Source of the DNA: Escherichia coli
GTDB lineage: Bacteria; Pseudomonadota; Gammaproteobacteria; Enterobacterales; Enterobacteriaceae
DNA length: 64,000 nt
Assembly (NCBI RefSeq): GCF_003018115.1
Contig: NZ_CP027457.1
Reading direction: 5' to 3' (one strand)
The notes below the pieces were generated by a model. The model ran no database searches and was not told the origin of the DNA. It worked only from the letters and a program-made list of their open reading frames with translations. The translations under genes and the position numbers were made by a program. Positions 51,334-55,499 of the stretch are shown here, in pieces; the first letter of the stretch is position 1; the number at the start of each line of letters is the position of its first letter.

Positions 51334-51687
51334 TTAACTGCAAATGTTCTTACTGTCTGCGGAACAGTTTTGTCGGGCCAGGTTGTGGACAATCGCCTGA
51401 ACCTTTTCCTGTTCACATCGCCAGGCTTCATCAATAATTTTCGCCGCCCATGCTGGAATATGCGGCGATAAGCGGTAATGAACCCACTTACCTTGCTTGC
51501 GGTCCAGCAATAGCCCGCTTTCCCGAAGTAACGCCAGGTGGCGGGATATCTTGGGCTGCGACTGATCGAGGGCAGTGCAGAGATCGCAGACGCATAACTC
51601 TCCCAGTTCGCTGAGCAGTAAAACGATGCCCAGACGGGTTTCATCAGCAAGAATTTTGAACAATTGGATGGGTAACAGAAATGACAT
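51334..51687 (-). CDS. arsR: Arsenite-responsive repressor ArsR
   Basis: 117-aa ORF with metalloid-binding ELCVCDLC motif and wHTH. Confidence 0.94.
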   Translation of the reverse strand: MSFLLPIQLFKILADETRLGIVLLLSELGELCVCDLCTALDQSQPKISRHLALLRESGLLLDRKQGKWVHYRLSPHIPAWAAKIIDEAWRCEQEKVQAIVHNLARQNCSADSKNICS

Positions 51688-51838
51688 ATTGCGCTCCTGA
51701 TTGTTGCAGGTAGTGTCTCTCTTCGAAGCGGATAAGTCAAAAACATATATGACTTAACGAATATGTAAGTGTAGAGAAAGGTATAGGTGTGAATTTTGAG
51801 TTGGGTATTCATTTGAAAGGAGGTCTGGATCAGGACGT

Positions 51839-51925
51839 AAAAAAACCGACTTTGCGTCGGTTTTTACTCTTCAGCCTGAGTTGGTGGCTCTGGCCGGAGT
51901 GAGAATGCCCACATCTAACGGTTCA
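51839..51925 (-). ncRNA. agrB: AgrB-like small RNA (antitoxin sRNA of the dinQ type I TA locus), approximate
   Basis: First copy of a roughly 235-bp tandem repeat; minus-strand hairpin (aaccgacgcaaagtcggtt) plus 7-U terminator; position next to arsR as recalled for K-12. Boundaries approximate. Confidence 0.5.
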
Positions 51926-52070
51926 ATACTATTAGCCAGTGGCTAACATTGCAAGCGTTAGCGATTTCTTCAGCTGGAGAAGGGACAGTTTGCTATACAT
52001 GTTGGTGAAAGAGGATTTATATACGTTCATCGGGTCGCTGCCGTACCAAGCCTTGTCCGAATCCGGACGT

Positions 52071-52158
52071 AAAAAAACCGACTTCGCGTCGGTTTTTTTA
52101 CTCTTCAGCCCAGAGTTGGTGGCTCTGGCTGGAGTGAGATAGCCATCATCTAACGCAT
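52071..52158 (-). ncRNA. agrA: AgrA-like small RNA, second repeat copy, approximate
   Basis: Second tandem copy with the same hairpin plus U-run terminator on the minus strand; divergent from the LexA-box promoter. Boundaries approximate. Confidence 0.5.
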
Positions 52159-52218
52159 CAATGCTAATACCATACTGAAACTATTGCAAGGACGTGCTGG
52201 TTCTATAACCTGCATGTA

Positions 52219-52234
52219 CTGTATGATTATCCAG
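52219..52234 (+). promoter_or_regulatory. LexA (SOS) box, putative dinQ promoter operator
   Basis: CTGTatgattatCCAG fits CTGT-N8-ACAG with one mismatch; lies in the agrA/dinQ divergent region, with a tataac -10-like hexamer just upstream. Confidence 0.55.
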
Positions 52235-52311
52235 TTAGCTCTGAGGCATTTTCACTCTGGCAATGCGCTTGACATCCTCCACGCCCTAAAGGACGTGGAT
52301 TCCTGCTACGT

Positions 52312-53532
52312 TCAGGCTGTCGCCTGAATCATTTCGGTGGGTTCCTGCTTCAACGGGCGGCCTGACTGCACCATCCCTCCACAGGCAAGAACGGCGTGCC
52401 CCGCCGCTAAAATGTTACGAGCGCCGTTTACATCGGCGTTCGCTGTATATCCACATACCGGGCATCTGAATTGACTTTGTGACAGGCGATTTTCTTTCGC
52501 TGTATGACCACAGCACGCGCAACGCTGGCTTGTGTACGCTGGCGGAACAGCAAGCACCTGACCGCCACGCCAGAGCTGCTTGTACTCAAGCTGGCGGCGC
52601 ATTTCATACCAGCCCTGATCCAGTATCGAACGGTTTAAACCTGATTTTGCCCGGACATTGCGCCCCGGCAGGCTGACCGTACCCGATGCTGACTTTGACA
52701 TGTTGCTGACCTTCAAATCCTCAATGACTATCATTGCGTGGTTTTTGCTGACGGTCGTTGTGACTTTGTGAAGGTAGTCCCTGCGGATATTTGCGATACA
52801 GGAATGCAGTCGCTGTATTTTGCGTTTCTGCTTCTGCCAGTTGTTGCTGAATTTGACCTTGCGGCTTAACTGTCGCTGAAGTCTCGCCAGCTTCTTCTGG
52901 TTTTTCTGAAAACTGTTTACAGGCTCAAAGGCTGTGCCATCTGACAGCGTGGCGAGTTTAGCCACGCCAGCATCCAGCCCGACCATTGATGCTGAAGGGT
53001 GAACCGGAGTTGATACTTCACTTTCTGTCTGAATACTGATGTACCACTTACCGCAGGACTGGCTGACCGTGACATTTTTCACAACACCCGTGACCTGACG
53101 GCTATTCCGGTAGCGCATCCAGCCCAGTTTCGGCAGAAAAATACGGCTGTTTTCCTGATCGAGCTTAACGCCCTGCGGGTAGCGGAATGCATCATTCTGT
53201 CCCCGCTTTTTGAATCGGGGAAAAGCAGCCCGCTTCTGGAAGAAGTTTTTGTAAGCCCGCTCAAGGTCTTTCAGTGACTGTTGCAATGGCTGTGAGGGCG
53301 AATCTTTAAGCCATTGCGTTTCAGTGGCGTTTTTCCACTCAACCAGCCAGGAAGCCATTTTCCCGTAAGGGATGTATTTATTACCGGCCTCATGATTCTC
53401 ATTCTGACGTGCCAGAGCACGATTGAAAACGAAACGACATGCGCCTGCGAAGCGCCTCATTTCACGCTCCTGTTGACCACCGGGTCTTAACTGGAATTTA
53501 AATGCCTGTAGTCGTTTCATGGGCCAAATCAT
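52312..53532 (-). CDS. tnpB: TnpB (OrfB_IS605) RuvC-like RNA-guided endonuclease / accessory transposase protein
   Basis: 406-aa ORF (start may be Met5, [13 protein letters not shown]); RuvC-like acidic residues in [23 protein letters not shown]; zinc-finger CACCGH...CPVCGY. Confidence 0.85.
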
Positions 53533-53542
53533 ACTTTGGCCT

Positions 53543-53958
53543 ATGAAAAAAGAAACCGATATCCGACGCGGAAGGCATTGTGTTTTCCTGATGCATGTTC
53601 ACCTGGTCTTCGTTACTAAATACCGACGTCAGATTTTTGACTATGACGCGACAGAAAAACTACGCACTTACTTTTCAAATGTATGTGCTGATTTTGAAGC
53701 TGAACTGGTTGAAATGGATGGCGAACCAGATCACGTCCATTTGTTAATTAACTATCCTCCCAAACTGGCGATATCCAGTCTGGTAAACAGCCTCAAAGGC
53801 GTATCGGGTAGGTTACTGCGACGAGATCGACCAGATATTGCAGCCAGGTATTACTACAAAGCGTTTTGTGGAGTCCTGGCTATTTTGCCAGTAGCTGCGG
53901 TGGTGCACCAATATCCATCATCCGCCAATACATTGAACAACAGCAAACACCTGGTTAG
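53543..53958 (+). pseudogene. tnpA: IS200/IS605 Y1 (HuH) transposase TnpA, apparently frameshifted
   Basis: N-terminal HuH motif (HVHLVF, KYRRQ) and second HxH (DHVHLLI) in the ORF frame; conserved C-terminus LWSPGYFASSCGGAPISIIRQYIEQQQ is in another frame from about 53866, ending at 53958. The 175-aa track ORF (to 54046) is a frame-fusion artefact. Confidence 0.55.
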
Positions 53959-54015
53959 GTGGAAAACCGCACCTTATATCCCCGCCCTGAATGAACGGGG
54001 TTTTACGGCGCACCG

Positions 54016-54093
54016 GATAAAGCAATCATCGTTCTTGGGGCGTTAATTGCGCTGCTGGAACTGATCCGCTTTCTGCTTCAGCTTCTGAACTGA
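54016..54093 (+). CDS. dinQ: DinQ-like type I toxin peptide ORF (codons 3-27 present; no in-frame start codon)
   Basis: Encodes DKAIIVLGALIALLELIRFLLQLLN*, matching recalled DinQ from residue 3; upstream in-frame codons (TGFYGAP) contain no ATG/GTG/TTG back to a stop at 53992; convergent with gor. Confidence 0.5.
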   Translation, partial: DKAIIVLGALIALLELIRFLLQLLN

Positions 54094-54110
54094 TAGCGGA
54101 AACGTAATTA

Positions 54111-54139
54111 AGGGCTAAGAGCACACTACTCTTAGCCCT
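54111..54139. terminator. Bidirectional stem-loop between dinQ and gor
   Basis: Perfect 11-bp stem agggctaagag/ctcttagccct with 7-nt loop between convergent ORFs. Confidence 0.6.
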
Positions 54140-54146
54140 TTAACAT

Positions 54147-55499
54147 TTAACGCATTGTCACAAACTCTTCTGCCGCCGTTGGGTGAATGGCGACGGTATT
54201 GTCGAAGTCTTTTTTGGTTGCGCCCATCTTCAGCGCCACCGCGAAGCCCTGCAACATTTCGTCCATACCAAAGCCAATGCCGTGAATACCGACAATCTTC
54301 TCTTCCGGTCCAACGCACACCAGCTTCATGCGGCACGGCTGGCGGTGAGTGGTGACGGCGGTATACATCGCGGTGAAAGAGGATTTATACACTTTCACCT
54401 GATCGTCGCCGTACTGCTCGCGCGCCTGCGGTTCCGTTAAACCAACAGTACCAATCGGCGGATGGCTGAAGACCACGGTCGGAATGTTGCTGTAATCCAG
54501 ATGCTCATCCGGCTTGTTATTAAATAGGCGTTCAGAGAGGCGGCGACCCGCTGCAACTGCCACCGGTGTCAGTTCTACTGCACCCGTGTTATCGCCCACC
54601 GCGTAAATACCTTCAATATTGGTGTTTTGATATTTATCGACGACGATATAGCCTTTTTCGTTAGTTTTAACGCCAGCGGCTTCCAGGTTGATGTTGTCAT
54701 TGGCAGGCTCGCGACCAATCGCCCAAATCAGGCAATCCACCGTTTCACTGCGACCATCTTCCAGCTCCAGCGTCAGGCTGCCATCGGCATTTTTCACTAC
54801 CGCTTTCGGGATGGCGTTGGTGTGCAACTGCGGACCTTCGGCGTTCATCACTTCGACCAGCGTTTCAGAGATCATCGGGTCGAAGCTGCGCAGCGGCGCA
54901 TGTTTACGCACAAACAGATGCGTTTTCGCGCCGAGGCCGTTAATCACGCCAGCCAGCTCAACGGCGATGTAACCCGCGCCAACAACCGCCACGCGCTCTG
55001 GCAAAGCAGGAAGGGCGAAGAAGCCATCAGAATCAATACCGTATTCCACGCCCGGAATATCCGGGTGGCTCGGACGACCGCCGGTGGCGATCAGAATATG
55101 ATCGGCCGTGATGGTTTCACCGTTAACTTCCAGCGTTTTGGCATCAACGAAGCGGGCAAAACCTTTGATTACATCAACGTTATTTTTACCGAGCACGTTT
55201 TCATAGGAAGTATGAATACGGTCGATATAGGCGGTACGGCTGGCGATCAACGTTTCCCAGTTGAATTTATTGATAGTGGTATCGAAACCATAATCCGGAC
55301 CGTACATGTGGATCGCTTCACGGATTTGCGCCGCGTGCCACATCACTTTCTTCGGTACGCAGCCGACGTTCACGCAGGTGCCGCCCAGCTCTTTGGCTTC
55401 AATCAGTGCGCATTTCTGGCCGTACATAGCCGCGCGGTTGATGGAGGCGATACCGCCGCTGCCGCCGCCGATGGCGATGTAATCATAGTGTTTAGTCAT
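54147..55499 (-). CDS. gor: Glutathione reductase Gor
   Basis: 450-aa ORF with FAD-binding GGGSGG and redox-active CVNVGC motifs. Confidence 0.95.

Follow-up and report, generated by a model that had tools for sequence, protein, structure and literature searches.

The LDR ldr/rdl and QUAD sib/ibs repeats of E. coli are segmental tandem duplications of units that combine a small toxin with an antisense RNA. Partial gene duplicates can also mark insertion or duplication junctions, for instance where the 3' end of a tRNA or protein gene is repeated beside an integrated element. The closest described locus is the dinQ-agrAB type I toxin-antitoxin system of E. coli K-12 (PMC3567139; PMC5066626). 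A tandem duplication of agrA and agrB has been presumed there, and the LexA operator of dinQ was described in the same study (Weel-Sneve et al., 2013; PMC3567139).

The stretch of DNA that we analyzed (64,000 nucleotides, hereafter the window) contains this same locus, with agrA and agrB recognized via RF02891. Its identity as E. coli is clear, as 51600..54300 is matched end to end by six complete genomes at 96-99.9%, O169:H41 strains included. The order arsR, agrB, agrA, dinQ, gor is that of K-12. Compared with the K-12 system, however, the dinQ of the window has been destroyed by an IS element. The interval between agrA and agrB, which is without any feature in the K-12 RefSeq annotation, holds a decayed copy of an internal part of gor, which we call gor'. 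The features of the locus are as follows.

51334..51687, minus strand: arsR
51837..51918, minus strand: agrB small RNA, copy 2 of the agr repeat (Rfam RF02891, 79.5 bits, E=3e-13)
~51948..51953, minus strand: -35 box of agrB
51956..51993, minus strand: spacer tail of 38 nt from the relic to the agrB -35 box, possibly further gor' or dinQ' debris
51994..52046, minus strand (gor orientation): gor' relic, copy of gor nt 1085/1087-1139 (codons 363-380), 81% identity over 53 nt
52047..52054, minus strand: ~8 nt of junction or filler that separate the relic start from the 16-nt agr flank (gor-sense sequence AAGGCTTG)
52055..52070, minus strand: 16-nt flank past the agrA terminator, ACGTCCGGATTCGGAC, with a second copy after agrB at 51823..51838
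52069..52153, minus strand: agrA small RNA, copy 1 of the agr repeat (Rfam RF02891, 90.7 bits, E=1e-15)
52217..52235, plus strand: LexA box of the dinQ promoter, TACTGTATGATTATCCAGT, identical to the K-12 dinQ promoter region
52269..54015, no strand assigned: IS200/IS605-family (IS609-like) element, with tnpB at 52312..53532 on the minus strand and a frameshifted tnpA
54016..54140, plus strand: dinQ coding remnant (stop at 54093) and bidirectional dinQ/gor terminator (54110..54140)
54362..54414, minus strand: source segment inside functional gor (CDS 54147..55499, minus strand)

The agr direct repeats are spaced 232-235 nt apart. The relic lies between the agrA terminator with its 16-nt flank and the agrB promoter, 76 nt upstream of the agrB start. 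A gor-derived piece at this position is mentioned in neither PMC3567139 nor PMC5066626, nor did we find literature on a gor fragment or pseudogene here. It is thus apparently unreported, although a feature of this kind is ordinary.

The first-pass annotation had noted a resemblance between 52001..52055 and 54361..54416. The similarity is real, but those coordinates were about 7 nt too high for the relic; the best local alignment pairs 51994..52046 with 54362..54414, with 43 of 53 positions identical (81.1%) and no gaps. The exact 18-nt core that it reported is present in the window (TATAAATCCTCTTTCACC in the relic, ggtgaaagaggatttata in gor), and the similarity extends beyond this core. In 5000 dinucleotide-preserving shuffles scored on both gor strands, the mean Smith-Waterman score was 11.2 (sd 1.3, maximum 19), and none reached the observed 33. 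By blastn, the relic matches gor with E=2e-10 and the whole 64-kb window with E=2e-9; the next-best match of the 150-nt spacer within the window has only E=0.31. The relic is on the strand of gor and in frame with it (frame 0) from gor nt 1087, which is codon 363, and its translation, YGSDPMNVYKSSFTNMY, shares 12 of 17 residues with the corresponding Gor segment. A Pfam scan of the translated relic was uninformative, as a genuine 25-residue Gor peptide likewise gave no match. The shortness of the match is the single point in favor of chance similarity, which becomes vanishingly improbable given the shuffles, the E-value across the window, the colinear in-frame register and the convergence of orthologous alleles on gor described below. 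The relic descends from gor.

The spacer tail (51956..51993) aligns best with the last codons of gor, at p ~0.05-0.08 against the 3' part of gor and ~0.27 against the whole candidate unit, and alignments with cheap gaps give three mutually exclusive placements. An extension of the E. coli homology past gor nt ~1141 was rejected on account of this non-significant match.

Differently decayed orthologous alleles of the relic are found in K-12, O157, Escherichia whittamii, a cryptic-clade E. coli and Escherichia albertii. Both ends are truncated, a TAA or the junction lies directly upstream, and most changes are non-synonymous. The K-12 allele has 76% identity to gor over 55 nt and a 4-nt deletion, strain AW1.7 has an additional 15-nt deletion, and the best-preserved allele, that of E. 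whittamii, is 85.5% identical to its own gor. Different lineages have kept different gor bases, with TCC TCT TTC ACC and ATG retained by the window/O157 type, and GTG AAA, GCG and ACC by the K-12/E. whittamii type. As read from the multi-allele alignment, 51 of 54 positions have the gor base in one or more lineages, and we infer an ancestor that would have matched gor at about that number of positions, much more closely than any living allele. The leftover differences (CAG to CCR, GTG to GTA and GAT to GAC) are common to all E. coli-type alleles, and one of the three is a state also found in the gor genes of E. whittamii and Citrobacter. Decay that is differently placed in each lineage, but converges backwards on gor, is the pattern expected if the alleles all descend from a gor copy. 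The relic decays in a lineage-specific manner that is consistent with an absence of purifying selection.

Natural populations also do without the relic. The agrA-agrB spacer is present in 3841 of 5426 complete E. coli genomes, ~780 of which have a window-like spacer (at least 95% identity) and ~2977 a K-12-like one, ~80% identical to that of the window; the remaining ~1585 (~29%) have no match and possess a single agr. The relic is therefore dispensable in natural populations. Given its decay and its dispensability, gor' is very probably a functionless relic of gor.

The alternative, that the relic is a promoter element or gives rise to an antisense transcript that base-pairs with gor mRNA, had been raised in the first-pass annotation. 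A plus-strand transcript of 51994..52046 would indeed be 81% complementary to gor mRNA, with a perfect 18-nt core in the window haplotype, but no such transcript is known. The relic has the polarity of gor, and the only known transcripts on this strand (agrA and any read-through from it) would be sense-like to gor. A crude scan for sigma-70-like consensus sites on the plus strand of 51690..52300 returned no promoter-like site, and the relic, at positions -76 to -128 relative to the start of agrB, is outside the core promoter. Moreover, the segment that would pair is not conserved across strains. The majority allele, the K-12 type, has lost the 18-mer because of its 4-nt deletion and retains a longest exact gor match of 8 nt; across the ~2977 genomes of this type, AW1.7 and E. 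whittamii, this match is 8-9 nt, compared to 18 nt in the window and O157 types. The 4-nt and 15-nt deletions among the alleles and the disappearance of the whole spacer from ~1585 genomes also speak against a function. As the relic is dispensable and the 18-mer is missing from the majority allele, the data do not support a pairing-based regulation of gor mRNA, and we consider a functional relic highly improbable.

The two E. coli spacer types are deeply separated haplotypes. The spacer of the window (51956..52054) and that of locus L001 (2162..2278) are ~20% apart over ~75 nt, while their flanks differ by a few per cent, and the K-12 type groups with E. whittamii. Ancient polymorphism, introgression and gene conversion are possible reasons for their coexistence. 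We considered whether occasional gene conversion from gor has kept the window/O157 relic partly gor-like, a proposal that is compatible with either of the origins weighed below. It would fit the contrast between the spacers and their flanks, and also the identity of the window type to gor across the 18-mer, a stretch with shared derived changes in the other type. However, the window haplotype carries many unique non-gor changes on either side of the 18-mer (AGC, ATG, AAC and AGC), and plain retention of ancestral bases fits the pattern equally well, making conversion quite unlikely.

Several rearrangements of the spacer were also seen. E. coli strains AVS0533, FDAARGOS_1257 and AR_0374 (L020, L021 and L022) have a single hybrid agr and no spacer, and spacer loss would be consistent with recombination between agrA and agrB; in the first two of these strains arsR and most of arsB are missing as well, and agr adjoins arsC. 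In E. coli SCPM-O-B-8794 (L010, 1500..1720), a deletion that removes agrB, arsR and most of arsB fuses the agrB promoter region to the 3' end of arsB. The gor relic of this strain is an additional divergent allele with a small internal duplication, TAAATATAAAT. In the window, a GTG-to-ATG change in the relic opens a 32-codon open reading frame, MNVYKSSFTNMYSKLSLLQLKKSLTLAMLATG, across the agrB promoter (51932..52030, minus strand). It is unlikely to be a gene, because the K-12-type 4-nt deletion falls inside it.

E. albertii provides the clearest view of the earlier extent of gor'. A scan of reference genomes with a strict agr-core pattern gave 7 loci, with Escherichia fergusonii, Escherichia marmotae and Escherichia ruysiae not among them. 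In E. albertii, gor, dinQ and a single agr are followed by the same 16-nt flank and a short junction, and then by three colinear pieces of gor. The first, AGTACGGCGGCAATCAGGT, corresponds to gor nt 1085-1103, and the second resembles gor nt ~1241-1260 (p=0.011). The third, GCGGCGAAAGAATTCATGACCATG, matches the last sense codons of gor at 20 of 24 positions and runs into CGTTAA, which contains the stop; only 1 of 20000 shuffles reaches its score, and it matches Citrobacter gor ends at 27 of 31 positions (E=5e-5). The gor end is thus kept to the stop codon in E. albertii, and therefore the ancestor of E. albertii and E. coli had a second gor 3' end downstream of agr. The relic is old and was once longer. 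The ancestral second copy ran from nt ~1085 to the stop codon, with different internal deletions shortening it since.

In E. albertii NBRC 107761 (L007, 4117..4640), a phage-plasmid-like fragment starts exactly at the stop codon of the relic. It is 78-94% identical to ~90-kb E. coli phage-plasmids and includes a tail protein gene and a RelE/HigB toxin; arsRBC is missing from the E. albertii relic locus. The DNA after the stop was considered as the original terminator of gor and rejected, as it is 94% identical to the ~90-kb phage-plasmids. Because it belongs to a phage-plasmid fragment, this DNA is uninformative on the original neighbor. The regions downstream of gor in Citrobacter differ among themselves.

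The dinQ-agr module itself is mobile and of plasmid type. Homologues annotated DinQ or DqlB are found in 2747 plasmid records, the majority of them conjugative (IncX1, IncF and others), in agreement with the dql family of plasmid and chromosomal dinQ-like genes (Kristiansen et al., 2016; PMC5066626). In Hafnia paralvei ATCC 29927 (L009, 3957..4451), a dinQ-agr homologue is found near genes for ParA, a resolvase/recombinase and an SprT-like protein. Aligning the chromosomal, IncX1 plasmid and Hafnia modules (plasmid loci L018 and L019) delimits the module, with homology from TTAAAGG, 4 nt after the gor stop, to the T-run of the agr terminator. The left end of this plasmid-type module in the window is 54016..54140, at most 4 nt from the gor stop codon. 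The relic is not part of the module, since plasmid and Hafnia homology stops at the agr terminator and no plasmid match covers the relic. Nor is the relic a member of RF02891. It lies between the agrA and agrB matches, and the sole overlapping match (52002..52101, plus strand) stays at 26.8 bits, below the gathering threshold of 40, and owes this score to the palindrome of the terminator. We found no dinQ-agr module after gor in four Citrobacter-type gor loci. From these comparisons, the chromosomal locus is a plasmid-type module inserted at the gor stop, specific to Escherichia and predating the split of E. albertii and E. coli.

The 16 nt past the terminator (ACGTCCKGATTCRGAC) are chromosome-specific and outside the plasmid module, and they follow both agrA and agrB. 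As this flank is common to the two, agrB was copied in place rather than separately acquired. The junction of ~8 nt that comes next is variable in E. coli, E. whittamii and E. albertii (AAGGCTTA or AAAATTT) and is missing after agrB.

These observations suggest a model in which gor' marks a local duplication. The starting point would have been an early Escherichia ancestor with a dinQ-agr type I toxin-antitoxin module of plasmid type right after the gor stop codon. A unit comprising gor from nt ~1085 to the stop, dinQ, agr and 16 nt past the terminator would then have been duplicated directly. Most of gor' and all of dinQ' would later have been deleted from the second copy, leaving a short gor' stub and agrB, and the stub would have drifted freely in each lineage thereafter. 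A single duplication accounts for the relic, its orientation, its position after the agrA flank and the agrA/agrB pair, and it agrees with the tandem duplication already presumed in PMC3567139. Keeping only the second antitoxin makes selective sense because a second toxin would be a liability and a spare antitoxin would not. We infer that one tandem duplication is behind both gor' and the agr pair, and that loss of the second toxin was selectively favored. The divergences are compatible with one age for the two pairs, in that identity is ~62% (counted from the alignment) between the promoter regions of agrA and agrB, where either partner can change, and 76-89% between the gor' alleles and gor, with essentially one partner drifting.

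The first-pass annotation had suggested that the agr repeat units arose by partial duplication of the gor 3' region. The segment does derive from gor and is tied to the agr repeats, but the agr units are not gor sequence and plasmid dinQ-agr modules carry no gor piece; the gor piece is instead a passenger or boundary marker of the duplication. The tandem model comes at some cost. It must assume an 8-nt filler at the junction and leaves the E. coli spacer tail without a significant match to any part of the unit, and it predicts that dinQ' debris or a dinQ-type terminator was once present after gor', neither of which was found in the lineages examined. It also needs a secondary deletion in Escherichia sp. 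E1V33, which has a single agr and no gor'. In this genome (L012, 9900..10480), GGACAA and an AT-rich stretch of ~465 nt separate the single agr from slp-dctR-yhiD-hdeB, which is 86% identical to E. coli; the locus has no gor relic, agrB or ars operon.

An alternative origin is an insertion-coupled duplication. The incoming DNA would have contained the module together with a gor 3' fragment, and would have integrated through either a Campbell-type single crossover or illegitimate recombination facilitated by homology. The original 3' end of gor would then survive, displaced, as gor', and agrB would stem from a later, separate small duplication. The plasmid-type nature of the module, its left edge at most 4 nt from the gor stop and its homologues on plasmids and the Hafnia mobile element would all be natural under such a route, and so would a gor' that reaches the stop codon beside only one agr in E. 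albertii. However, this route requires two events compared to one for the tandem model. The donor must already have had gor beside the module, an arrangement that only Escherichia shows, and a gor fragment is found in no plasmid module. The synonymous states TCT and TTC in gor' are Escherichia-specific, with three Citrobacter gor genes having TCG and TTT/TTC, and sliding windows against Citrobacter reveal no divergence break at nt 1087 of functional gor. Together, these two results favor a local duplicate over a foreign gene. We accordingly regard insertion-coupled duplication as unlikely and rate it below the tandem model.

A foreign source for either gor copy was rejected. The few informative synonymous sites indicate Escherichia, and the Citrobacter divergence of gor nt 1087-1353, although slightly lower than upstream, is within the sliding-window range.

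Taken together, the best explanation overall is that gor' is a functionless relic of a duplication of the gor 3' end, dinQ and agr, probably the same event that gave rise to agrA and agrB, and we consider this reading rather likely. For the narrower claim that gor' and the agrA/agrB pair come from a single tandem duplication, the comparisons leave the chances about even.

On the tandem reading, the locus resembles the LDR and QUAD repeats as a chromosomal segmental tandem duplication of a toxin and antisense RNA unit. However, LDR and QUAD keep whole units, whereas all that is left of the second copy here is the antitoxin RNA, along with a stub of the neighboring housekeeping gene. The locus is also like the junctions of integrated elements in that inserted or duplicated DNA is bordered by a direct repeat of the 3' part of a gene, of which the redundant copy decays. 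Unlike such junctions, it has no integrase or att site, and the DNA between the repeats is only ~0.5 kb (dinQ plus agrA) in IS-free strains.

The relic provides physical evidence for a local duplication of agrA and agrB that has so far been presumed, with one edge fixed inside gor. It is also a caution for annotators and for those who predict RNA targets, since the complementarity to gor here is a fossil and not a regulatory site. How gor or dinQ work is understood no differently in its light. A broader reading is stepwise domestication, in which the module lands at most 4 nt after the gor stop, a tandem duplication of ~0.8 kb follows, the toxin copy is lost to leave an orphan antitoxin, and the cognate role diverges between haplotypes. 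We put this forward tentatively, as somewhat short of an even prospect; if true, the relic would make it possible to retrace, one step after another, the domestication of a plasmid-type type I toxin-antitoxin module.

One metagenome bin contains what looks like a transfer of this region. In contig CAJMPC010000160.1 (L008, coverage 1.7x), the first 1101 nt of gor are ~70% identical to E. coli, with AT-rich DNA upstream, and the sequence from gor nt 1102 through dinQ and agrA is 100% identical to K-12. The switch lies 15 nt from the 5' boundary of the relic, inside a highly conserved 12-residue stretch of Gor. A natural transfer of the gor 3' end, dinQ and agrA to another species was rejected in view of the complete K-12 identity and the 1.7x coverage, and the contig is probably an assembly chimera with K-12 DNA.

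Within the window, the IS junctions at 52268/52269 and 54015/54016 show that 165 bp of dinQ were replaced; with them went the 5'UTR and its agr target site, the Shine-Dalgarno sequence and the start codon, GTG. According to RefSeq, tnpB is intact and tnpA frameshifted, and a 22-residue 'DinQ' is still annotated. The toxin gene is dead in the strain of the window and both agr RNAs are orphans. The insertion in dinQ is found in 6 of 5426 complete genomes.

The two antitoxin copies can be compared by how well the 34-nt antisense segment of each fits the dinQ target (loci L001, L004, L005, L006, L011 and L013). In K-12, agrB has 3 mismatches and agrA has 9. In O157, SBF22, E57, E. whittamii and E69, agrA is the closer copy (4-5 mismatches) and agrB the worse one (6-8), and the copy that serves as cognate antitoxin may differ between haplotypes.
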